Origin: an uncultured delta proteobacterium
Lineage (GTDB): Bacteria; Myxococcota; Myxococcia; Myxococcales; Myxococcaceae
NCBI GenBank assembly: GCA_963771175.1
Contig: CAVYSY010000006.1
Coordinates: 96,001-160,000 of the forward strand
DNA: 64,000 nt
Direction of reading: 5' to 3'
Below, piece after piece: positions 8,592-43,783 of the stretch. The position numbers were made by a program, and so were the translations under genes. Every line of letters starts with the position of its first letter. Position 1 is the stretch's first letter. The notes beneath the pieces are model-generated. The model saw only the letters and a program-made list of their open reading frames with translations. It had not been told where the DNA came from and did not search any database.

Positions 8592-9703
8592 GCCTCCACT
8601 CCCTGCTGCGAGAGAAGCGCGTCCTGGTGCTGTGCGGAGCGGGAGGCGTGGGGAAGACGACGACGGCGGCGGCGCTCGGCGTGGCGGCGGCTCGCGCGGG
8701 CCGCAAGGTGCTGGTGCTCACCATCGACCCGGCGCGGCGGCTCGCCGAGGCCATGGGGCTGACCGAAGGCGGCGCCGAGCCCACGACCATTCCGCCCGAG
8801 CGGCTCTACGAGGGCGGCCAGCCCGGCACCGGCCAACTGGACGTGTGGATGTTGGATCCGCGCGTCGTCTTCGAGCGCTTCGTGAAGCGGCTGTCTCCCA
8901 CGCCGGAGGCGGCGCGCAACATCCTGGAGAACCGCCTCTATCGCTTCCTGTCGGACCTGGTGGCGGGCATGCAGGAGTACGCCGCGGCCGAGGCGCTCGA
9001 CAACTTCCTGGACGAGGGCCGCTACGAGCTCGTCGTGTTGGACACGCCCCCGAGCCGCCACGCGCTGGACTTCCTGGAGGCCCCGGGGCGGCTGGCGCGC
9101 TTCCTGGATGATCGCATCGTCTCGCTCTTCCTCCCGGAGGAGAAGGGGCGCGGGGGGCGGTTGTGGCGCAAGACGTCGCAGCTGCTGGGCAACGTGCTGG
9201 GGAGCATCTTCGGCGAGGGCTTCACCCAGGAGATGCGGACCTTCATGGGGGCTTTCAGCGGGCTGTTCGCCGGCATCCGGATGAGAGCGGATCGGCTGCG
9301 CTCGCGGCTGAGCTCGCCGGACGCGGCCTTCCTGCTGGTGACGTCGCCGGAGGAGGCCTCGCTGGAGGAGGCCTCCTTCTTCCGGGACATGCTGCGCGAG
9401 AAGGGGCTGCCCTTCGCGGGCTACGTGCTCAACCGGAGCTGGGCTCGGGAGGACGGGCTGGCCCACCCCGAGTCGCTCCTGCGGCACGTGGAGGAGCACG
9501 GCGCGGCGCGTGACGGGGTGAAGGCGCTCATCCATCTGGCCGACAACGAGCGTGCGCGCGCCGAGGCCCACCGAGGGCTGCTGGCGCGACTGGCGGAGCG
9601 GCTGCCCGCGGGCGCGGTGGCGGTGGCCGCCCCCGAGGCCGGTGGCGAGCTGGAGGACTTCGGGGGCCTGGTGCGCCTGGGCGAGGCGCTCGCCACCCCG
9701 TGA
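8588..9703 (+). CDS. ArsA/Get3-family ATPase (subunit B)
   Basis: GAGGVGKTT, TIDPARRLA and DTPP motifs; ATGA overlap with the upstream gene. Confidence 0.92.
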   Translation: MSLHSLLREKRVLVLCGAGGVGKTTTAAALGVAAARAGRKVLVLTIDPARRLAEAMGLTEGGAEPTTIPPERLYEGGQPGTGQLDVWMLDPRVVFERFVKRLSPTPEAARNILENRLYRFLSDLVAGMQEYAAAEALDNFLDEGRYELVVLDTPPSRHALDFLEAPGRLARFLDDRIVSLFLPEEKGRGGRLWRKTSQLLGNVLGSIFGEGFTQEMRTFMGAFSGLFAGIRMRADRLRSRLSSPDAAFLLVTSPEEASLEEASFFRDMLREKGLPFAGYVLNRSWAREDGLAHPESLLRHVEEHGAARDGVKALIHLADNERARAEAHRGLLARLAERLPAGAVAVAAPEAGGELEDFGGLVRLGEALATP

Positions 9704-9804
9704 GGCGCTGCCGGGGCCTCCGAAGGAAGTCCTTTCATCCAGGTTGAGGCACGGCATCCGCGCGTCCGAATCGCGGACCTCGCCCCCCGGTCGCGCGGCA
9801 CGCG

Positions 9805-9829
9805 AACTTGTCCACTATGTGTACAAGTT
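9805..9829. repeat. Imperfect 25-bp palindrome AACTTGTCCAC-TAT-GTGTACAAGTT
   Basis: Inverted repeat with one mismatch; resembles the 27-bp palindrome 75 bp downstream. Confidence 0.6.
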
Positions 9830-9879
9830 GCGCGAGAACGCGCCCGAGAGGTCTCCCTCCCCCCGGGCGCGCGGCGCGC

Positions 9880-18258: not shown

Positions 18259-21204
18259 TCACCCCGCCCGAGCGCCCATGTCTCCGCGTCCGGCGAGCCG
18301 CGCCACCGCCTCGATGAGCTGCGCCGGTTCAATCGGCTTCGACAGGTGCACCTGGAAGCCCGCGCGGTAGGCCCGACGCGCGTCCTCCGCGCTCGCGTAC
18401 GCCGTGAGGGCAATCGCCGGCACCCACTGGTCCCTCGCCTCGGCCCACGCCCGCACCCGCCTCAGCAGCGCGTGCCCGTCCTCCCCCGGCAGGCCGATGT
18501 CCGACACCAGCACGTCCGGCAGTGACGCCTTCAGTCGCTCCATCGCCTCGGTCGCGTTGCTCGCCGTGCTCACCAGCGCTCCCCGCTCGCGCAGCATCAA
18601 GGCAATCAGCTCGCGCGCATCCGGCGCGTCCTCCACCAGCAGCACCGACACCCCGTCCAGCTTCACCGCCGGCACCGCCGGCTCCGCGCCCGGCAGGGCC
18701 TCCGTCTGCGCCTCGGGCAGCACCGCCGGCACCGGCAGCGTCACCGTGAACGTCGAGCCCTTGCCCTCGCCCGCGCTCTCCGCCCGCACCGCGCCCCCGT
18801 GCAGCCCCACCAGGTGGTGGACAATCGCCAGTCCCAGCCCCAGTCCCCCGTGCTCGCGCGTGGCCGAGCCGTCCGCCTGCCAGAAGCGCTCGAAGAGATG
18901 CGGCAGCGACTCGGCGCGAATCCCCTTGCCCGTGTCCGTCACCCGAATCCGCAGCTCCCGCTCGCCGCGGTCCACCCGCACCACCACCCGCCCGCCCGTG
19001 GGAGTGAACTTCACCCCGTTCACCAGCAGGTTCCAGCACACCTGCTGCAACCGCCCCGGGTCTCCCACCAGCATCGCCGTGCCGTTGCCGCCCACGTCCA
19101 CCTCGAGCGCCAGCGTCACGTTCTTCTGCTCCGCATGCGGGCGCACCACCTCCACCGCCGCCTGCACCACCCCCACCAGCTCCACGCCCCTGCGGTGCAG
19201 CGTCAGCTTCCCGGTGATGATGCGCGACACGTCCAGCACGTCTTCAATCAGCTGCGCCAGCGTGCGCGCGTTGCGCTCGATGACGGCCAGGCCCTTCTCC
19301 ATCGCCTTCGCGTCGCTCTGCCGGCTGCGCAGCATCTGCGTCCAGCCCAGCACCGCCGTCAGCGGCGTGCGCAGCTCGTGACTCATCACCGCGAGGAACT
19401 CGTCCTTGGCGCGGTTGGCCGCCTGCGTCTCCGCCATCAGCCGCGTGTTCTCAATCGCCACCGAGGCCATGCGCGCGAGCTGCACGAGAATCGCCTCGTC
19501 CTCGGCGCTGAAGTCCCCCTCGTGCCGGTCCGAGAGCTGGATGAGGCCCAGGTTGCGCCCATCCCGCCCCACCAGCGGCGCCGCCAGCCACCCGCGCAGG
19601 GGCGGGTGCTTCGCCTTGTGCCGGCCAAAGCCGCGCCAGGCCGGGTGGGACTCCAGTTCCTCCTGCGTCAGCCGCATGGGCAGGTTCAGCCGGCACACCC
19701 ACGAGTAGATGCCCGCACCCTCCGGCGGCTCGTGCCAGTCCCGCCACGCCGCGTACTTGTCCGACATCGACGTGGCGAGGATGGACTGCGACCAGCGCCC
19801 CTCCACCGTCAGGCTGGTGACGGCCTGGTGCGCCCCAATCACCTCGCGCGCCTGCTCGGTGATGGCCTCGAGCACACGCTCGATGGAGTCCGCCTCGCTG
19901 ATGATGAGCGCCGCGCTGGCCAGCCCCTGGAGCTGCGTGGCGTGGCGCTGCTCCCGGGCGAGCAGCCGCTCCAGCTCGGCCTCGCCCTGGCGCTGGCGCG
20001 TCACGTCCCGGTGGGCCCCCACCCACTCGCGCACCCGGCCGTCCTTCTCCAGCACCGGCACCGCGCGCGCCAGCATGTGGCGGTAGGCCCCGTCGTAGCA
20101 CCGCAGCCGGTGCTCCAGTTGGAACGGCGCGCGCGTGGAGAGCGACTCCTCCCAGGCGCGCGCGGTGCGCCCCCGGTCCTCCGGGTGCACCGCGTCCAGC
20201 CAGCCCCAGCCCGCGCACTCCTCGCGCGACTGCCCGGTGAAGGCGCTCCAGCCCGGCTGCTCCTCGACGAACTCTCCCGAGGGCGGCGTGGCCCAGATGA
20301 TGTCCGAGGTGGCCGTCACCAGCGAGCGGAAGCGCTCCTCGCTGTGCCCCAGGTCGCGGGCGAGCGCCTCGGCGGTGCGGCGCGAGCGCACCAGGTCCGT
20401 CACGTCGTAGGCGAAGATGGCCACGCCCTCCACCCGCCCGGAGGCGTCGCGCTGGGGGTGGTAGACGATGTCGAAGAACATCTCCTCGGCCGGAGCGGCT
20501 CCCGGGCGCGCCACCTTCACTGGCCGGGCGCGGCCCACGTAGGAGTGCCCCGTGGAGAAGACCCGGTCCATCACCTCGAGGACGCCCTGGCCCTCCAGCT
20601 CGGGGATGGCCTCGCGCACCGGCTGGCCCACCACGTCCCGGCTCCCGTAGAAGCGGCGGTGCAGCAGGTTGGAGAAGATGAAGCGGTGCTCGGGGCCGCG
20701 GGTGATGCTGACGGCGGCGGGCGCCAGCATCAGCATCTCCTGGTAGCGGGCGCGCTCGTTCTCCACGCCGGCGCGCGCGAGCTGCTCGGCGGACAGCAGC
20801 CGCACCCGCTCGTTCTCCGCCAGGCGCCGCTCCGTCACGTCCCGGGTGAAGACGACGAGCCCCTCGCCCGAGGGGAAGGCCCGCGTCTCCAGCCACAGGC
20901 CCGCGGGGGCGAAGAAGTCCTCCAGCGAGACGAGGGTGCGCGCCTCCATGGCCCGCCGCCACGCGGGGGCGAAGGCGCTGTCGGCCACCTCGGGCAGCAC
21001 GGCCCACAACTCCTGTCCCAGGAGGTGCTCACGCGTGCGGCCCACCTGCCGCTCTCCCACCGCGTTCACCCAGAGGAGCTTCCACTCCCGGTCCATCACG
21101 AGGATGCCGTCGGTGACGCCGTCGAGCAGCGGATCAAACCCCGCTGGGGCCGGGCTCTCCGGCCCCCCGGTCGGAGTTCTTGACGGCTCGTGAGTATCCT
21201 TCAT
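18259..21204 (-). CDS. Hybrid sensor histidine kinase (PAS x3, GAF, HisKA, HATPase, REC)
   Basis: FLAVMSHELRTPL, NGVKFT, DTGKGI, GGLGLGL and a receiver LVED...SDIGLP. Confidence 0.96.
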   Translation of the reverse strand: MKDTHEPSRTPTGGPESPAPAGFDPLLDGVTDGILVMDREWKLLWVNAVGERQVGRTREHLLGQELWAVLPEVADSAFAPAWRRAMEARTLVSLEDFFAPAGLWLETRAFPSGEGLVVFTRDVTERRLAENERVRLLSAEQLARAGVENERARYQEMLMLAPAAVSITRGPEHRFIFSNLLHRRFYGSRDVVGQPVREAIPELEGQGVLEVMDRVFSTGHSYVGRARPVKVARPGAAPAEEMFFDIVYHPQRDASGRVEGVAIFAYDVTDLVRSRRTAEALARDLGHSEERFRSLVTATSDIIWATPPSGEFVEEQPGWSAFTGQSREECAGWGWLDAVHPEDRGRTARAWEESLSTRAPFQLEHRLRCYDGAYRHMLARAVPVLEKDGRVREWVGAHRDVTRQRQGEAELERLLAREQRHATQLQGLASAALIISEADSIERVLEAITEQAREVIGAHQAVTSLTVEGRWSQSILATSMSDKYAAWRDWHEPPEGAGIYSWVCRLNLPMRLTQEELESHPAWRGFGRHKAKHPPLRGWLAAPLVGRDGRNLGLIQLSDRHEGDFSAEDEAILVQLARMASVAIENTRLMAETQAANRAKDEFLAVMSHELRTPLTAVLGWTQMLRSRQSDAKAMEKGLAVIERNARTLAQLIEDVLDVSRIITGKLTLHRRGVELVGVVQAAVEVVRPHAEQKNVTLALEVDVGGNGTAMLVGDPGRLQQVCWNLLVNGVKFTPTGGRVVVRVDRGERELRIRVTDTGKGIRAESLPHLFERFWQADGSATREHGGLGLGLAIVHHLVGLHGGAVRAESAGEGKGSTFTVTLPVPAVLPEAQTEALPGAEPAVPAVKLDGVSVLLVEDAPDARELIALMLRERGALVSTASNATEAMERLKASLPDVLVSDIGLPGEDGHALLRRVRAWAEARDQWVPAIALTAYASAEDARRAYRAGFQVHLSKPIEPAQLIEAVARLAGRGDMGARAG

Positions 21205-21418
21205 GGGCGCGGGGCTCAGGCCCATCAGAACACGGCAACGTCCGCTCGTGCACCCGGATAGGACCCGGGACTGTTGGAAGGAGGCCGGAGGAGCAGCCCG
21301 AGGTGGGAGTAGCGGACACCCAGGGCGCGTGAAGCCCGGCCGGTGAGGGAGGAGGCGGCCCGGGGCCTTCCGGCCTTGTGTGTCCCGGACGCATCCGTTA
21401 GCAGTCGGGCCACACCCC

Positions 21419-22072
21419 ATGTCCACCGACGCCTCGACTCCCCCTGGGCCCCCGCCGCGCTCCGCCAACCGTTTCCTCTGGGTGGCGCTGGCCTCCGCCG
21501 CGTGCCTCGTGGTGCTCGCGGTGGGCCTGCTGCGCACGCGCGAGCAGCCGCCCCTGGAGCGCTATGGCCGGCTCCCGGCCTTCACCTTCACCCGCCAGGA
21601 CGGCCAGCCCTTCGGGCTCCAGCAGCTCCAGGGCCGTCCCTGGGTGGCCAACTTCATCTTCACCCGCTGCCCCACCATCTGCCCCGTCTTCACCCAGAAG
21701 ATGGCGCGCTTCCAGAAGCAGACGACGGGCCTGGGCGGACAGCTCGCGCTCGTCTCCTTCTCGGTGGACCCCGAGTACGACACCCCCGAGCGCCTCACCG
21801 CCTACGCCGCCAAATACGGCGCGGACCCGGCCCGCTGGAGCTTCCTCACCGGAGACTACAACCAGCTCAAGGACATCATCGTCGGCGGCTTCAAGATGGC
21901 CATGGGCCGCGATGACGCGAACGCGCAGGAGCTCGCGAGCATCTTCCACGGCAGCCACTTCGTGCTGGTGGACCGCACCGGGGAGATTCGCGGCTACTAC
22001 AACAGCGAGCACGACGACGCGGTGGAGCGGCTGCTGCGCGACACCGAGCAGCTCGTGCGCAGCGGCGAGTAG
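21419..22072 (+). CDS. SCO1/SenC copper chaperone
   Basis: N-terminal TM, FTRCPTICP, SVDPEYDTP and the conserved His in IFHGS. Confidence 0.93.
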   Translation: MSTDASTPPGPPPRSANRFLWVALASAACLVVLAVGLLRTREQPPLERYGRLPAFTFTRQDGQPFGLQQLQGRPWVANFIFTRCPTICPVFTQKMARFQKQTTGLGGQLALVSFSVDPEYDTPERLTAYAAKYGADPARWSFLTGDYNQLKDIIVGGFKMAMGRDDANAQELASIFHGSHFVLVDRTGEIRGYYNSEHDDAVERLLRDTEQLVRSGE

Positions 22073-36618: not shown

Positions 36619-37504
36619 GGATACCCTTCCCGCCATGCGCCCCCCTTCCGCCAGGCACCGGCTCGTCCCCGCGCCCGAGGACATCCAGCAGGGCTACGAG
36701 CTGCCCTGCGAGCAGCGGCTGGTGCGCGGGGCCGCACGGTGCGCCTCTTCACCTTCCCGGATGGCAGCCAGGACGCAGGCGCGCACCGTGCTGTGCCTGC
36801 CGGGACTGGGCGCCTCGGGCCGCTCGTTCGCGCCCATGCGCCGCTGGCGCCCGAATGCGCGCTTCCTCCTGTGGACGCCGCCGCTGCGCACGCCCATGAC
36901 GCACACGCCGCTCCAGTGGAACCTCGCCGTCGCTGGCGGCACCCGGAGGCGCGGCTGCCCGAGCGCTTCGCGCTGGTGGGCTCCTCCTTCGGCAGCCTGG
37001 TGTCGCTCGCCTTCGCGCTGGCGCACCCCGAGCGGGTGAAGGCGCTGGTGCTGGTGTCACCGGTGGCCAGCGTGCACCGCGTGCGGCGCTGGGCGCTGGC
37101 GCCTGTCCACGCTGGTGCGCATGCCCAAGCCCCTCGCCTACCTGTTCGCCCCCACGGTGGCGCGGCGTGCTGGGCGGGCGCGCACCTGCCGCCCGAGGGC
37201 CGCGCGGAAATCGTCCGCGAGGCGCGCCGGCTCTCCCCGCTGGAGCTGCTGCGGCGGCTGCGAGGACATGCTCGCGCGCGGACTACCTGGAGGACCTCGA
37301 GCAGCCTGCGCGTGCCCACGCTCATCCTCCAGGGCGCCCGGGACCTGCTGGTGCCGCTGTCGGCACGCGCGGGACGTGGCCGCGCGGATTCCGGGCGCGC
37401 GCCTGGAGGTGCTCCGCGAGGCGAGCCACCTGCCGTACATGAGCCACCCGCAGGCCTTCAATGCCTTCGTGGACGACTTCCTCTCCCGACACGCCTCGGG
37501 CTAG
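36611..37504 (+). CDS. Alpha/beta hydrolase; several frameshifts
   Basis: PGLG, GSSFG nucleophile elbow, PTLILQGARD and SHLPY. Confidence 0.8.
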
Positions 37505-37899
37505 GGCCGCAGCGCCTTCTTCACCGCTCCGGCGACGCGGAGGACGAGCTCCAGCCCCGAGTGGGCGAGCACCCAGAAGGTGGTCGTCGCGACCTTGAGC
37601 CGCACCTTCCACTTCGGCGCGCCCTCGCGGACCAGCTTGTGCATGTGCTCGAGCGCGTCACCCACCTGCTCGTTGGAGATCCGCGCGGGCACGTACGTGC
37701 AGAGCACGTCGAAGGTGCGCTGCGCGCGAACGATGACCGAGGGTGGCTCGGGAGGAGGAATCGGGGGACGGCTCTTCTGGACGGGAACGAGCGCCTCGGT
37801 GAACACGGAGCGGCGCGAGCTCGTCAACCCATCCTCGTAGTCCCCATCCAGGGAGAACGCATCCAACACGGGCAACTTCGGGCGATGGTCATCATCCAT
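37501..37899 (-). CDS. Hypothetical protein downstream of PadR
   Basis: Abuts the padR stop; contains NEQVGDALE. Confidence 0.6.
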   Translation of the reverse strand: MDDDHRPKLPVLDAFSLDGDYEDGLTSSRRSVFTEALVPVQKSRPPIPPPEPPSVIVRAQRTFDVLCTYVPARISNEQVGDALEHMHKLVREGAPKWKVRLKVATTTFWVLAHSGLELVLRVAGAVKKALRP

Positions 37900-38211
37900 T
37901 CAGATTGCCTCCGCGGGTTGCAACAGGTTGAGCAAGGCCGTCCGCTGTTCCCTGGCCACACGCCGCCCTTCCCCCGTCAGCTCGTAGTACCGCCTGGGTC
38001 GCCCCCCTCGCTCGGGAAGGGGCTCGCCGTCGTAGCTGCGCAGGAACCCGTCCCGCTCCAGCGCCTTGAGCGCCGGATACACCGACCCCTCGTTCAGGAG
38101 AATCTTCCCCTGCGTCCTCTCCCGGACCCGCTCGATGATCTCCAGCCCGAACCCCCTCCCCCCGATCAGCGACATCAGGATGGCTGTCCTAGCGGAAATC
38201 GGAGTGTCCAT
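37900..38211 (-). CDS. PadR-family transcriptional regulator
   Basis: GFGLEII, GSVYPALKALERDG and RRYYELT. Confidence 0.93.
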   Translation of the reverse strand: MDTPISARTAILMSLIGGRGFGLEIIERVRERTQGKILLNEGSVYPALKALERDGFLRSYDGEPLPERGGRPRRYYELTGEGRRVAREQRTALLNLLQPAEAI

Positions 38212-38279
38212 GGACCGCAAGGGTAACCGGAAAAACGTGGAGCGCAACCTAGAAACTTGAGGTTGCTCCCCTTGAAGGC

Positions 38280-38591
38280 TCAAGCCGAGAGCGCGAGGCG
38301 CGAGCACGGCCGGAGGGACTCCTCCTCCCGGGGAGGATTGGGGGGGCGAGGCCCGCGGGGGCTCGCGGGCAGCCGACTCGGAACCAGCACGGCCCGGCGC
38401 GACGAGGTGATTCCGTCCTCCAGGTCGTCCCACAGGTCCGCGCCAGGCCCTCCCGGCGGGAGCTTCTCGGCCCATGGGCTCTTCGGCGTCATCTCAACCA
38501 CCTGAACACCTCCCTGGGCTGCGGCGTTGATGGCCAACACCGTATCCTCAAGCCTTGAGGATTGCATTTTTCCACTCGTGCTGTCCTTCAT
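38280..38591 (-). CDS. Hypothetical protein
   Basis: GGGGAAGG RBS; 103-aa ORF with no recognised motif. Confidence 0.35.
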   Translation of the reverse strand: MKDSTSGKMQSSRLEDTVLAINAAAQGGVQVVEMTPKSPWAEKLPPGGPGADLWDDLEDGITSSRRAVLVPSRLPASPRGPRPPNPPREEESLRPCSRLALSA

Positions 38592-39248: not shown

Positions 39249-39887
39249 ATGACCATGCGTTTGATGAAGACCCTGAGCCTCCTGGGTGGCCTCGCCGCCG
39301 CCGGGTGTGCCAGCACCTCGCCCCACGGCAACCTCAGCGCCCTCAGCGTCGCCTCCTCCCAGGACGCGGCCTTCTGCCAGCACCGCGTCCCCCAGGAGAA
39401 CTGCACCCGCTGCCACCCCGAGCTCGTCCCCCGCTTCCAGGCCGCGAGGGACTGGTGCGGCGAGCACGGCGTGCCCGAGTCCCAGTGCTTCACCTGCCAC
39501 CCGGACCTCTCCTTCGAGCCGCTCCCCGCGCTCGCCCCCGACGCGGACTTGAAGAAGCTCTCCCAGGAAGGAGAGGACGTCCCCGAGCTCGCCCCCCACG
39601 CCGTCCCCGGCAAGGTGACCGTCTTCGACTTCTACGCGGACTGGTGCCCGCCCTGCCGCAAGGTGGATGCCCACATGTTCGGCCTGCTCAACACACGCGG
39701 GGACATCGCCTACCGCAAGCTCAACGTCGTCTCGTGGGACTCGCCGCTGGCCAGGCGCCACCTCGGGCAGGTGGAGAACCTGCCCTACCTCATCATCTAT
39801 GGGAGGGACGGGAAGCTCGTGCGCGCCATCAACGGCTTCGACCTGGGCGCGCTGGATGCGGCCATCACCGAGGGGAGCGCGCGATGA
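39249..39887 (+). CDS. Lipoprotein with two CxxCH repeats and a thioredoxin domain
   Basis: GGAGG RBS, AAGC lipobox, CTRCHP, CFTCHP and DFYADWCPPC. Confidence 0.88.
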   Translation: MTMRLMKTLSLLGGLAAAGCASTSPHGNLSALSVASSQDAAFCQHRVPQENCTRCHPELVPRFQAARDWCGEHGVPESQCFTCHPDLSFEPLPALAPDADLKKLSQEGEDVPELAPHAVPGKVTVFDFYADWCPPCRKVDAHMFGLLNTRGDIAYRKLNVVSWDSPLARRHLGQVENLPYLIIYGRDGKLVRAINGFDLGALDAAITEGSAR

Positions 39888-40897
39888 GATGGGTGGCCGT
39901 GGCCGTGGGGCTGCTCGGGCTCGCCATTCCCAACCGCGCCGCCGCCTGCGCGGGTTGAAGCAATCCCAACCTCCCGGTCGGGAGGGACACCGTTTCCATG
40001 CTACGCGCCGGAGAGACCGGCGTGTCCCTGTCCACCCTCGTCACCGACGTGCGCGTGGTGCACCCGTCCGCATGCCCGGACATCGGCCCCATCTGCCAGG
40101 TGCGCGACGAGCCCCCGCAGCTCCATGACCAGCGCTTCACCATCGCCGAGCTGCGCGCCACCCTGGAGCACGCCCTCACCGATACCTTCGGTCTAGAGGT
40201 ACAGCTGCCCCTGCGCAGCCAGCGCACCACCGTGCGCTTCACCGCGTTGGATGGCACGCCCCTGGCGCTCGACTACGAGAACATCCACCACCGGAACGAG
40301 ACGCTCTTCGGCCTTGGAGACCCGTGGGTGCTGGGGCGCTACGCGGGGCGGCTCGGTGGCGTGGGGCTGGCGGCCCGGGCGGGCTTCACCGTGCCGCTCG
40401 GGAGCACCGTGGAGGACCCCTTCGCCCTCGGCGCCGCCGGACTCCCCCACCAGCACGTGCAGTTCGGCACCGGCACCGTGCAACCCCTGCTCGGGCTGGA
40501 GGCCTCGCGCACCTGGGGGAAGTGGGGCGCCCGCGCCTGGGGCCAGGCCCAGCTCTCACTCGTGGAGAACCGCTTCGGCTATCGCGCCGGCCACCGCTTC
40601 GCCGCGGGCCTCGCCGCCGAGGGTCCCCTCGTGGGCGCCCTGCGCTTCTCCGTGGGCGCGGACGTCGCCAACGAGCAGCCCGAGCGCTGGAGCGGGCTCG
40701 TCCAGCAGGATGGCAACCTCGGCCGCACCGACGTGCTCGCGGGGACGGGGCTGGCATACCCGCTCGGACCCGTGCGGCTCGGGCTCCACCTGCGCGTGCC
40801 CGTGTACCAGCGCATCATCGGACACCACGGGCAGCTCACCTACCCGGGCATCCTCCAGCTCAACGCGGGCACCACCTTCGGCGGCACGCGACGCTGA
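39884..40897 (+). CDS. Putative selenoprotein outer-membrane beta-barrel (N-terminal CxxU; in-frame TGA at 39956-39958)
   Basis: ATG 39884 is coupled to the upstream stop. Signal peptide then C-A-G-TGA, continuing in frame into ORF 39998..40897 (GLGD, amphipathic strands, near-terminal Phe). Confidence 0.75.
39970..39985 (+). promoter_or_regulatory. Candidate bacterial SECIS hairpin
   Basis: CCTCCC-GGTC-GGGAGG; the stem begins after an 11-nt spacer following the UGA and has a G-first apical loop. Confidence 0.7.
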
Positions 40898-41072: not shown

Positions 41073-41462
41073 ATGTGGGCTCGCGCGTCGAACATCGTCC
41101 TGGGCATCTGGCTCATCTTCGCCCCCCTCGTGCTCGGGTATGACGCGCCGGCGGCCCGGTCCAACGACATCGTCGTGGGCCTCTTCCTGGCCACGTTCGC
41201 CCTCGTCGGCGCCATCGTGGGCAAGACGCGCTATCTCATCGTGCTCGCCATCTGGCTCATCGTGGCGCCCTTCGCCCTCGGGTACGGGAACGAGCTCGCC
41301 CCCGTCCTCAATGACGTCCTCGTGGGCATCGCCTCGCTCGGCCTGTCCCTCGTGCCCCCGCACCGGCGCGAGCGGGTGACCGCGCTCCAGCGGGAACCCG
41401 CGAGCACCGAGGAGAGGTGGGGGCGGCTGGGCGTGTCGCGGCGGACCCCCACGGGGGCGTAG
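41073..41462 (+). CDS. SPW-repeat membrane protein
   Basis: GGAGG RBS; two NxxLGxWLIxAPxxLGY...NDxxVG repeats. Confidence 0.85.
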   Translation: MWARASNIVLGIWLIFAPLVLGYDAPAARSNDIVVGLFLATFALVGAIVGKTRYLIVLAIWLIVAPFALGYGNELAPVLNDVLVGIASLGLSLVPPHRRERVTALQREPASTEERWGRLGVSRRTPTGA

Positions 41463-41479: not shown

Positions 41480-42886
41480 TCACTGCCGCCGGGCATCGTG
41501 GCCCAGCTCGCGGGCCGAGTCCTCCACGGGGTCCGGGCGCTTGTCGCGCATCGTCACGAACTCCTCGGCCGCGGTGGGATGGATGCCCACCGTCGAATCG
41601 AGCTGCTTCTTGGTGACGCCACACTTCAGCGCCACCGACAGGCCCTGGATGATTTCGGGCGCGTCCGCCCCCACCATGTGGAAGCCCAGCACCCGGCCGC
41701 TCTCGCGCTCCGCAATCACCTTCATCATCGTGCGCTCGTCCCGCCCGCTCAGCGTGTGCTTCATGGGCCGGAAGTTGGACACGTATACGTCCACGTTGCC
41801 GTAACGCTCGCGCGCCTCGGACTCGGTGCACCCCACCGTCCCCACCGGTGGCTGGCTGAACACCGCCGAGGCCACCCCCGTGTGGTCCATCTTCGTGGGG
41901 TTGTCGTGGAAGAGGGTCTCCGCCAGGGCCCGCCCCTCGGCGATGGCCACGGGCGTGAGGTTGATGCGGTCCGTCACGTCCCCCACCGCGTAGAGGCTCT
42001 CCACGCTGGAGCGAGACCACTCGTCCACCTCCACCGCGCCGCGCTCGTCCAGCCGGACGCCCACCGCCTCCAGCCCGAGCCCCCGCGTGTTGGGTACCCG
42101 CCCCGTGGCGTACAGCACCACGTCCACCTCGAGCGTGTCGCCCATGCGCGTCAGCAGGCTCAGCGTGCCGTCCGGGCGCTTCTCGATGTCTCGGATGAAG
42201 GTCTCCGGCCGCAGGTCGATGCCCTTCTTGCGCAACTCCTGGGTGAGCATCGCGCGGATGTCCTCATCGAAGCCGCGCAACACCGTGTCGCCGCGGAGGA
42301 GCATCGTCACCTTCGAGCCCAACGCGTTGAAGATGCCCGCGAACTCCACCCCGATGTAGCCCCCTCCCACGATGGCCACCCGGCGCGGCAGCTCCGGCAG
42401 GTCGAGCGCCCCGTCCGAGGAGATGGCGTGCTCGATGCCCGGTATCTCGGGGAAGAACGGACGCGAGCCCGTGGCCACCAGGATGCGCTCCGTCGTGTAG
42501 CGCTGGCCGCCCACCTCCACCGTGTGCGCGTCGACGATGCGACCCCGGCCTTCAATCAGCTGCACCCCCGTGTCCCGCAGCAGGCGCCTGTACACGCCAT
42601 CGAGCCGCGCCAGCTCCTTGTCCTTCGCCGCCTGGAGCTTCTTCCAGTCGAACGTCGGCTCCGGCACCGACCAGCCGTAGCCCGCCGCATCCTCGAAGTC
42701 CGCGTGGAAGTGGGCGCCGTAGACGAGCAGCTTCTTGGGCACGCACCCCCGGTGCACGCAGGTGCCACCAATGCGGTTGTCCTCGCAGATGGCCACGCGC
42801 GCGCCGTACGAGCCCGCGCGGCGGCTCGAGGCCACACCGCCCGAGCCCGCGCCAATGGTGAACAGGTCGAAATCGTATGGGGGCAT
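41480..42886 (-). CDS. gor: Glutathione-disulfide reductase
   Basis: GAGSGG, GGTCVHRGCVPKK, GGGYIGVEFA, LTPVA and IHPTAAEE. Confidence 0.95.
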   Translation of the reverse strand: MPPYDFDLFTIGAGSGGVASSRRAGSYGARVAICEDNRIGGTCVHRGCVPKKLLVYGAHFHADFEDAAGYGWSVPEPTFDWKKLQAAKDKELARLDGVYRRLLRDTGVQLIEGRGRIVDAHTVEVGGQRYTTERILVATGSRPFFPEIPGIEHAISSDGALDLPELPRRVAIVGGGYIGVEFAGIFNALGSKVTMLLRGDTVLRGFDEDIRAMLTQELRKKGIDLRPETFIRDIEKRPDGTLSLLTRMGDTLEVDVVLYATGRVPNTRGLGLEAVGVRLDERGAVEVDEWSRSSVESLYAVGDVTDRINLTPVAIAEGRALAETLFHDNPTKMDHTGVASAVFSQPPVGTVGCTESEARERYGNVDVYVSNFRPMKHTLSGRDERTMMKVIAERESGRVLGFHMVGADAPEIIQGLSVALKCGVTKKQLDSTVGIHPTAAEEFVTMRDKRPDPVEDSARELGHDARRQ

Positions 42887-43447: not shown

Positions 43448-43783
43448 ATGTGGGCTCGCTGGTTGAACGTCATCCTCGGCTTCTGGTTGGTGTCCGCGCC
43501 CTTCGTGCTCGATTACCGCATCAACCAGGCCCAGTTGAATGACCTGTGTGTGGGGCTCGGCATCATCCTGTTCGAGCTGGGCACCATCGCCGTCCGGAAG
43601 CTGCGCTACGCGAATACCCTGCTCGCGGTGTGGCTCATCGTGTCCCCCTTCGTCTTGGGTTACGGCGGCTACCGCACCGCCACCCGCAACGACATCATCG
43701 TGGGCCTGCTCGTCGGCGCCCTCTCGCTCGTCTGGGATCACCGCGCGTGGACGCCCCACCGCAGGCCCCTCGCCGAGATGTAG
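43448..43783 (+). CDS. SPW-repeat membrane protein (paralog of 41073)
   Basis: MWAR..NVILGFWLVSAPFVL...WLIVSPFVLGY...NDIIVG. Confidence 0.85.
   Translation: MWARWLNVILGFWLVSAPFVLDYRINQAQLNDLCVGLGIILFELGTIAVRKLRYANTLLAVWLIVSPFVLGYGGYRTATRNDIIVGLLVGALSLVWDHRAWTPHRRPLAEM

Follow-up and report, generated by a model that had tools for sequence, protein, structure and literature searches.

We predict that a gene at positions 39884 to 40897 of the DNA analyzed here encodes a selenoprotein that standard annotation truncates. The stretch, referred to below as the window, comprises 64,000 nucleotides (nt) of contig CAVYSY010000006.1 (assembly GCA_963771175.1, positions 96,001 to 160,000) from an uncultured member of the Myxococcaceae. 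The product is very probably an outer-membrane beta-barrel with selenocysteine (Sec, U in the one-letter code) close to its mature N-terminus; this judgment covers the identity of the protein and not its function. The features that matter to the argument, including the open reading frame (ORF) of standard gene calling and a hairpin resembling a selenocysteine insertion sequence (SECIS), are these:

39249 to 39887, forward strand: partner gene, encoding a thioredoxin-like lipoprotein whose signal peptide ends in LAAAGC; its stop TGA overlaps the ATG of the barrel gene.
39884 to 40897, forward strand: full putative selenoprotein gene, 337 codons and a stop TGA at 40895 to 40897, as judged from direct reading, full-length Cys homologs and the predicted fold.
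39884 to 39946, forward strand: predicted signal peptide MRWVAVAVGLLGLAIPNRAAA, residues 1 to 21, with an AxA-type site directly 5' of C22.
39947 to 39958, forward strand: C22-A-G-U25 (TGC GCG GGT TGA), the [C/U]-A-G-[C/U] motif at the predicted mature N-terminus.
39956 to 39958, forward strand: in-frame UGA, probably read as Sec (U25), aligned with the invariant Cys of Cys-form homologs.
39959 to 39969, forward strand: spacer of 11 nt between the UGA and the hairpin, read from the sequence.
39970 to 39985, forward strand: SECIS-like hairpin with a 6-bp stem, CCUCCC/GGGAGG, and the apical loop GGUC, from folding energy and a comparison of 39 sequences.
39998 to 40897, forward strand: 299-residue ORF of standard gene calling, without a signal peptide.

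A preliminary description of this DNA, made from its letters alone, had proposed such a gene, and direct reading and translation confirmed its outline. The ATG at 39884 to 39886 shares bases with the stop codon of the partner gene at 39885 to 39887 (ATGA), so the barrel and thioredoxin lipoprotein genes are probably translationally coupled. From this ATG a single frame runs through the signal peptide, C-A-G-TGA (39956 to 39958), SNPNLPVGRDTVS and the methionine at 39998 into the 299-residue ORF, with SNPNLP directly after the TGA in translation. The spacer and hairpin were likewise found where they had been described, with CCTCCC at 39970 to 39975, GGTC at 39976 to 39979 and GGGAGG at 39980 to 39985. 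The further claim that gene callers truncate the protein is borne out by the databases. The window protein's own entry, P0002, has 299 residues, and all 45 listed relatives with 68 to 86% identity (P0003 to P0047, from Archangium, Hyalangium and Pyxidicoccus) are called at 279 to 298 residues without the N-terminus, covering at most 87% of the query. The 299-residue ORF at 39998 to 40897 is an artefact of calling a stop at UGA 39956.

A protein search with the read-through translation gave 414 relatives. Most of those with 50 to 60% identity (from Melittangium, Labilithrix and others) are 336 to 370 residues long and cover 91 to 100% of the read-through protein. When these long homologs are aligned, a signal peptide leads into ACAGCSNPNLP, whose second Cys falls exactly at the TGA column. 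Codons at this column were compared in 50 sequences, namely the window and 49 related loci, one genome per species. The loci are mostly from Myxococcota, with one Polarisedimenticolia metagenome-assembled genome (MAG), and include complete Archangium gephyra genomes and Myxococcus and Pyxidicoccus isolates. The U25 column is TGA in 39 of the 50 and TGC in the other 11, so the Cys/TGA alternation anticipated in the preliminary description is present, and the window's TGA is neither a sequencing error nor a private lesion. The CxxU motif originally described was found in the window and holds for 17 of the 50 sequences, but it does not describe the whole family. In 22 sequences the first Cys codon of the motif is also TGA, giving UxxU with two Sec codons; 11 sequences are CxxC and none is UxxC. 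The two in-frame TGAs of the UxxU forms are 9 nt apart (loci L011, L018, L021, L022, L024-L026, L032, L034-L036, L038-L042 and L044-L049), and the motif is U-A-G-U except in three loci with U-A-A-U, in each case with a single hairpin downstream. Among 16 close relatives, the signal-peptide codons have 20 variable columns at codon position 3, compared to 10 and 8 at the other positions. No third-position bias is seen in the 13 codons after the TGA, with 5, 3 and 5 variable columns at positions 1, 2 and 3.

The hairpin tracks the TGA. All six stem pairs are kept in 17 of 17 CxxU and 22 of 22 UxxU sequences and in none of the 11 CxxC sequences, and the GGTC loop is found in 39 of 39 TGA forms versus none of the 11 Cys forms. 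The preliminary description had held that a genuine element should recur, with covariation, in TGA-bearing homologs, and this is the pattern observed. Covariation was counted in a 39-sequence alignment of the TGA forms with a 7-pair version of the stem, in which 94.8% of cells are paired, compared to 80.8% in column shuffles (none of 500 reaches 94.8%) and 45 to 60% when the 3' partner is slid. Double-sided changes occur in 30 cells. Pair 24-39 is CG in 25 sequences, GC in 10 and UA in one; pair 27-36 is CG in 27, GC in five, UA in three and GU in one; and pair 26-37 alternates between UG and UA. Compensatory changes are therefore seen at two or three stem pairs, and RNAalifold, unaided, recovers the same stem from the alignment. 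The pattern TGA-N15-CCGGTCGG occurs exactly once, at the homologous site, in 38 of the 49 loci and nowhere else in those, and it has no match in any of the 11 Cys-form loci. After NLP, the peptide is a fixed V-G-[GR] in the TGA forms only and is variable in the Cys forms, which looks like an RNA constraint laid over the coding sequence. One subclade (L037-L044 and L046-L048) has SNPTLPVGGAQ in place of SNPNLPVG[GR], with the stem GCUCCC/GGGGGC.

The minimal SECIS element of Escherichia coli fdhF has a GGUC apical loop and is functional 11 nt from the UGA. For bacterial SECIS elements in general, section 5 of PMC13188914 gives a model with four criteria. The hairpin fits these in its loop (4 nt, opening GG, with a G in positions 1 to 2), its stem (6 to 7 bp), its distance from UGA to loop (17 nt, or 26 nt when counted from the upstream UGA in UxxU forms) and its minimum free energy (-11.9 kcal/mol in the window), in agreement with the preliminary reading as a SECIS. 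It differs from the fdhF element and the bacterial consensus in its short stem without a bulged U, and also in that 22 loci would need a single hairpin for two Sec codons, 17 and 26 nt away. Rfam gave no match at gathering thresholds across the whole window, and only chance-level matches around the site at E up to 10.

Relatives of the window organism are reported to have Sec machinery. The A. gephyra DSM 2261 genome has one tRNA for Sec (PMC5441343), and SelD and the Sec trait are reported for Cystobacter fuscus, Stigmatella aurantiaca, Myxococcus fulvus, a Myxococcus sp. and Corallococcus coralloides, with one to three known selenoproteins each (Peng et al. 2016, PMC5029168). The barrel of an Archangium MAG shares 89% identity with that of the window, and the window appears to derive from an Archangium-like myxobacterium.

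Several results weigh against the prediction of a selenoprotein. Taken alone, the window hairpin is within chance for GC-rich DNA: its z score against GC-rich shuffles is -0.64 with a 61-nt segment and -0.43 with 40 nt, reaching -2.3 only for the bare 21-mer, and TGA-N15-CCGGTCGG has one match in the window against 0.13 expected, with at least one match in 12 of 100 shuffles. With single-sequence statistics so unremarkable, the significance of the hairpin comes from the comparison across relatives. No tRNA was found in the 64-kb window, no sel-related Pfam domain among the 39 window ORFs scanned, and no tRNA-Sec in the DNA of the 49 related loci, where the locus rather than the whole genome was scanned. 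Finally, since 11 CxxC forms exist, Sec is dispensable for the barrel family.

Read-through of the UGA without Sec, by a near-cognate Trp, Cys or Arg tRNA or with Cys carried on tRNASec, the hairpin merely stimulating the event, is conceivable, given that the sequence itself does not identify the inserted residue and that Cys forms function in 11 loci. We consider it quite unlikely. The column is Cys in every non-TGA homolog, the classical Sec/Cys signature; the hairpin matches the bacterial SECIS model in loop, spacing and energy; tRNA-Sec, SelD and the Sec trait are present in the lineage; and a pair of UGAs 9 nt apart, as in 22 loci, would carry a heavy cost in the absence of dedicated decoding. 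A true stop, pseudogene lesion or TGC sequencing error, with a 299-residue product from ATG 39998 or none at all, agrees with the standard annotation (299 residues in the window, 279 to 298 in close relatives) and with the unexceptional energy of the single hairpin, but is barely credible given a shared TGA position in 39 of the 50 independent genomes and MAGs, among them the complete A. gephyra genomes and the Myxococcus and Pyxidicoccus isolates, conservation as protein of 24 codons before and 13 codons after the TGA with upstream variation mainly at codon position 3, a short ORF without the signal peptide that an outer-membrane barrel needs, and many relatives that have no ATG at the corresponding place and whose called starts differ.

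In a maximum-likelihood tree of 49 barrels (L049 was omitted as too short), UxxU is found in every deep branch, the SNPTLP subclade forms one such deep branch, the CxxC forms make up one group (a single change; support 75/82), and CxxU has three or more separate origins; L010 (CxxU) groups close to L011 (UxxU). UxxU looks ancestral, but because the tree is only midpoint-rooted this is a reading rather than a result. A profile search of 1.84 billion representatives identified 624 family members at E ≤ 0.001, 206 of them at E ≤ 1e-30. By a hand count from match coordinates among the best 150, the match reaches the motif in only 24, and in about 49 it begins at most 15 residues from the protein's own start, at profile positions 29 to 62. 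This is the pattern expected of gene calls restarted after the TGA, to which fragments also contribute. Some longer proteins of 400 to 588 residues (P0155, P0156, P0170, P0172, P0176, P0197 and others) match the profile only from about position 80; they may represent fusions or divergent barrels that differ at the N-terminus and are extended at the C-terminus.

All 50 sequences share one layout, in which a hydrophobic stretch leads into small-x-small and then C or U. The residues before the motif are AAA, AHA, ADA, AEA, ARA, AIA or AGA, with x often charged or polar. Because of this small-x-small site and of Sec at +1 in 22 sequences, we infer a signal peptidase I site rather than a lipobox: the enzyme would cut after A21, leaving C22-A-G-U25, or U-A-G-U in many relatives, as the mature N-terminus. 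The cleavage site and lipobox were judged by eye, and because start-finding and choice of the longest frame both over-extend GC-rich ORFs, their results were used for the motif region only. Compared by eye with the lipobox consensus, L-[AS]-[GA]-C with a +1 Cys, the barrel does not conform. The possibility that it is a lipoprotein was considered and rejected, since A-x-A precedes the motif and +1 is a TGA codon in 22 of the 50 sequences. UniRef names the Melittangium homolog "Lipoprotein".

An AlphaFold model of the barrel, built from an 82-sequence alignment, has a predicted local distance difference test score (pLDDT) of 86.8, a predicted TM-score (pTM) of 0.83 and 12 beta-strands by DSSP; residues 21 to 40 are modeled less surely, at a pLDDT of 55 to 67. 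Foldseek matched it in the PDB to the COG4313 channel 4rl8 (E 6.5e-10), with the best TM-scores (0.61/0.74), and to FapF (E 6.1e-10, TM 0.52/0.59), followed by FadL/TodX, autotransporter barrels and porins; a sequence profile of the barrel found no match in the PDB. The model and these matches support the preliminary assignment to the outer-membrane beta-barrels, and there is strong support for a predicted 12-stranded outer-membrane barrel of the COG4313/FapF structural class, with a signal peptide of the Sec export type. The PF13557 model matches neither the window protein nor P0062 or P0053 at E up to 1; of the homologs scanned only P0102, a distant one, matches it (1e-9). P0122 and three homologs likewise had no NCBIfam match up to E = 1. 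The motifs CPDIGPIC, IHH(R) and HQH noted in the preliminary description are present, and their residues C64, C71, H135, H136, H189 and H191 are invariant in 82 aligned sequences. Together with invariant H60 and H81, they lie in inter-strand segments that are predicted, from strand order only, to face outward.

The upstream partner combines an N-terminal Cys/His module, C-x-H...C-x-x-C-H-P followed by DWC-x-x-H...PESQC-x-x-CHPDL, with a C-terminal thioredoxin domain bearing WCPPC. It matches the Pfam families Redoxin (2.9e-7, 30.8 bits; cutoff 26.6) and Thioredoxin (6.3e-7, 29.8 bits; cutoff 23.5), its profile matches PDB thioredoxins at 4e-11, and its AlphaFold model (pLDDT 90.4) returns thioredoxins from Foldseek. 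W113, C114 and C117 of the WCxxC active site in this thioredoxin fold are invariant, as are C-x-H...C and DWC-x-x-H...PESQC-x-x-CHPDL in the module. In 34 of the 49 loci the gene immediately upstream, in the same orientation, encodes a homolog of the partner; it ends 72 to 135 nt before the Sec codon with two exceptions. Binding of c-type heme by the CxxCH of the partner was considered and rejected; heme attachment is unlikely because many loci have C-x-x-H-H or C-x-x-C-N as their first CxxCH-like motif. Partner motifs track the barrel class. The six aligned loci with CxxC barrels have C-x-x-H-H-P and WCAAC, and the CxxU loci of Archangium and Myxococcus have C-x-R-C-[HN]-P, with WCPPC in most and WCQPC or WCGPC in two, which may reflect shared ancestry rather than co-adaptation. 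In L005 (Archangium gephyra PVMSAZ), an extra T at about 9700 to 9710, compared to L004 and L007, shifts the partner frame before WCPPC, either a real frameshift or an assembly error. In L019, at about 9700 to 9850, a masked run of N interrupts the partner gene, and its C-terminal half is unreadable there.

How such a protein might be made and used can be sketched as follows. Translation very probably starts at AUG 39884, probably coupled to the thioredoxin lipoprotein gene, and UGA 39956 is very probably decoded as Sec, for which the hairpin at 39970 to 39985 would recruit SelB carrying Sec-tRNASec. Signal peptidase I would then cut after A21, so that the mature protein would open with C22-A-G-U25. 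By analogy with the COG4313 channel, the approximately 20 residues before strand 1 may sit in or under the barrel lumen. There the N-terminal thiol/selenol pair could act as a redox-active, thiophilic site that forms a selenenylsulfide or diselenide, and the co-translated periplasmic thioredoxin lipoprotein could keep it reduced. The pair might bind or pass on a thiophilic substrate, either a soft metal ion or a chalcogen species, that crosses the barrel, in which invariant His and Cys lie on the predicted outer loops. We propose this function, a redox-active thiophilic thiol/selenol pair reduced by the partner and handling soft metal or chalcogen through the barrel, tentatively, and would give it somewhat less than an even chance. 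With less assurance, we can imagine an ancestral channel whose mature form opens with a U-A-G-U diselenide pair, with one GGUC hairpin decoding both UGAs; its selenol hook in the lumen, with a free amine, would serve as a selenium gate or as a metal/chalcogen relay and be reset by the coupled thioredoxin lipoprotein.

Other results stand opposed to these proposals. The N-terminal 20 to 40 residues of the model have a pLDDT of only 55 to 67, which leaves the place of this segment in the lumen unsupported. At E up to 1, neither Pfam nor NCBIfam has a model that matches the window barrel. In 15 of the 49 loci (the SNPTLP clade, three closely related MAGs and the Polarisedimenticolia MAG) there is no thioredoxin gene, so the partner is not obligatory, and the SNPTLP subclade has neither this upstream partner nor conserved neighbors. 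Among the loci compared, no wider neighborhood is conserved beyond the two-gene module, leaving no hint of the substrate, and no CcdA- or DsbD-type electron donor lies nearby.

An alternative that might well hold, although we would not favor it, is that [C/U]xx[C/U] is chiefly a metal ligand. Its free amine and two thiolate or selenolate donors would hook a soft metal (Cu(I), Ni, Zn or Hg), with the barrel serving as a pore for metal uptake or efflux and the partner as a metallochaperone, through its Cys/His module, whose thioredoxin domain would only protect the ligands from oxidation. The clustering of invariant H60, C64, C71, H81, H135, H136, H189 and H191 in predicted outward segments would suit such a pore, as would the invariant C-x-H...C / C-x-x-H...C-x-x-C-H module of the partner, which has the zinc-finger-bearing thioredoxin 2 among its fold matches. 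Sec is also known from metal-handling proteins, namely UxxU NF041115, MerT-like, P-type ATPase, CopZ family and Cu/Zn efflux transporter proteins (PMC13188914). However, the loop topology is derived from strand order alone, no metal-resistance or metal-transport genes are conserved nearby, and no metal-binding family model in Pfam or NCBIfam matches the barrel or the partner. It is improbable that the N-terminal motif serves structure or assembly alone, for instance through a transient disulfide or selenenylsulfide during export or insertion by the beta-barrel assembly machinery, in an otherwise ordinary COG4313-type channel for hydrophobic molecules. The closest fold is indeed the COG4313 channel, and P0102 matches PF13557 at 1e-9, but retention of one or two Sec codons and a SECIS across deep branches would be costly for structure alone, and the invariant His and Cys loop residues were not seen described for COG4313 channels in the available portions of PMC4493636.

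The following genes lie around the module in the window:

37501 to 37899, reverse strand: gene for a 132-residue protein without a Pfam or NCBIfam match, divergent from the two-gene module.
37900 to 38475, reverse strand: gene for a PadR-family regulator, also divergent from the module.
41073 to 41462 and 43448 to 43783, forward strand: genes for SPW-repeat small membrane proteins (PF03779; 7e-17 and 1.5e-21), downstream of the barrel.
41480 to 42886, reverse strand: gene for a pyridine nucleotide-disulfide oxidoreductase with Pyr_redox_2 and dimerisation domains, glutathione-reductase-like by its GGTCV..GCVPKK.
21347 to 22069, forward strand: gene for a SCO1/SenC copper-chaperone-like protein (4.8e-29), 18 kb from the barrel.

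The PadR regulator and 132-residue protein genes are both retained upstream in nine related loci. SPW genes also occur 1 to 4 kb downstream of the barrel in six related loci, and the oxidoreductase gene, convergent with the barrel gene, is kept there in nine Archangium loci with about 90% identity. The SCO1/SenC-like gene adjoins one for a large PAS/GAF hybrid histidine kinase at 18262 to 21561.

If the prediction is correct, it adds a selenoprotein family that annotation has missed, in which the window protein and all the close relatives listed are recorded as truncated hypothetical proteins without a signal peptide. Selenium use would then extend to the outer membrane of aerobic, predatory soil myxobacteria, for which one to three known selenoproteins are reported (PMC5029168), and, should the reading of a U-A-G-U channel hold, catalytic selenium would be placed at the cell surface of these bacteria. 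With UxxU, CxxU and CxxC on one scaffold and at least three independent Sec/Cys switches, in either direction, the family suits the question of what Sec buys over Cys. It is also a compact test case for the service of two UGA codons 9 nt apart by one short SECIS. The pattern TGA-N15-CCGGTCGG in its SNPNLP context could serve as a small model that lets annotators correct such genes.

We did not find the family described, within the limits of the sources covered. It is absent from the 119 prokaryotic selenoprotein families in Table 1 of a 2026 review (PMC13188914), although the supplements of that review and BSepDB could still include it. The available portions of the BSepDB and deep-Sep papers mention neither Myxococc* nor such a family. 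A literature search on myxobacterial and outer-membrane selenoproteins gave nothing relevant, and covered the families of Haft and Tolstoy 2025 only indirectly, through NCBIfam and the review table. Two of the 119 families, GSU2204/MtrB-PioB (NF041027) and the FCYXU TonB-dependent receptor (NF049945), are likewise predicted outer-membrane barrels, but their Sec lies outside an N-terminal [C/U]xx[C/U], the table giving "-" and "CxxU within FCYXU" (PMC13188914). Neither of these models nor any other NCBIfam selenoprotein model matches the window protein at E up to 1. The NF041027 and NF049945 barrels are also much larger than that of the window. The Prx-like oxidoreductase, HMA-type NF041115 and FmdB families (PMC13188914) also have [C/U]xx[C/U], with a single Sec or a pair, and they too have Cys-form homologs. 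There the motif lies inside soluble thioredoxin-like, HMA or zinc-ribbon folds, whereas here it would form the first four residues of a mature barrel.

The partner resembles thioredoxin 2 (TrxC) in having a Cys-rich N-terminal module ahead of a WCxxC fold, with 3p2a and 7ysi among its Foldseek matches. It scores far under the 125-bit cutoff of the NCBIfam TrxC model (1.2e-4, 21.8 bits), and it differs in being a lipoprotein exported to the periplasm and in having C-x-H and C-x-x-C-H rather than two CxxC pairs. For the barrel, the best Foldseek E-value is that of FapF, the amyloid secretion channel of Pseudomonas (5O65/5O67), but the identity is only 12% and no fap genes lie near the window barrel. 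We know of no report of Sec in FapF. The COG4313 channel Pput2725 of Pseudomonas putida F1 (4RL8; PF13557, Phenol_MetA_deg), which gives the best TM-scores, is likewise a 12-stranded barrel. In its crystal structure, the lumen is blocked from the periplasmic side by approximately 14 residues that precede strand 1, and its family is implicated in uptake of hydrophobic molecules (PMC4493636). The window protein too has a segment of about 20 residues before strand 1, at a pLDDT of 55 to 67, but lacks a PF13557 match and is 16% identical to 4rl8. COG4313 channels are not known to contain Sec, and the available portions of PMC4493636 describe no N-terminal CxxC in them. Compared to these channels, the family described here is further set apart by its invariant His and Cys loop residues and by its coupled thioredoxin lipoprotein.

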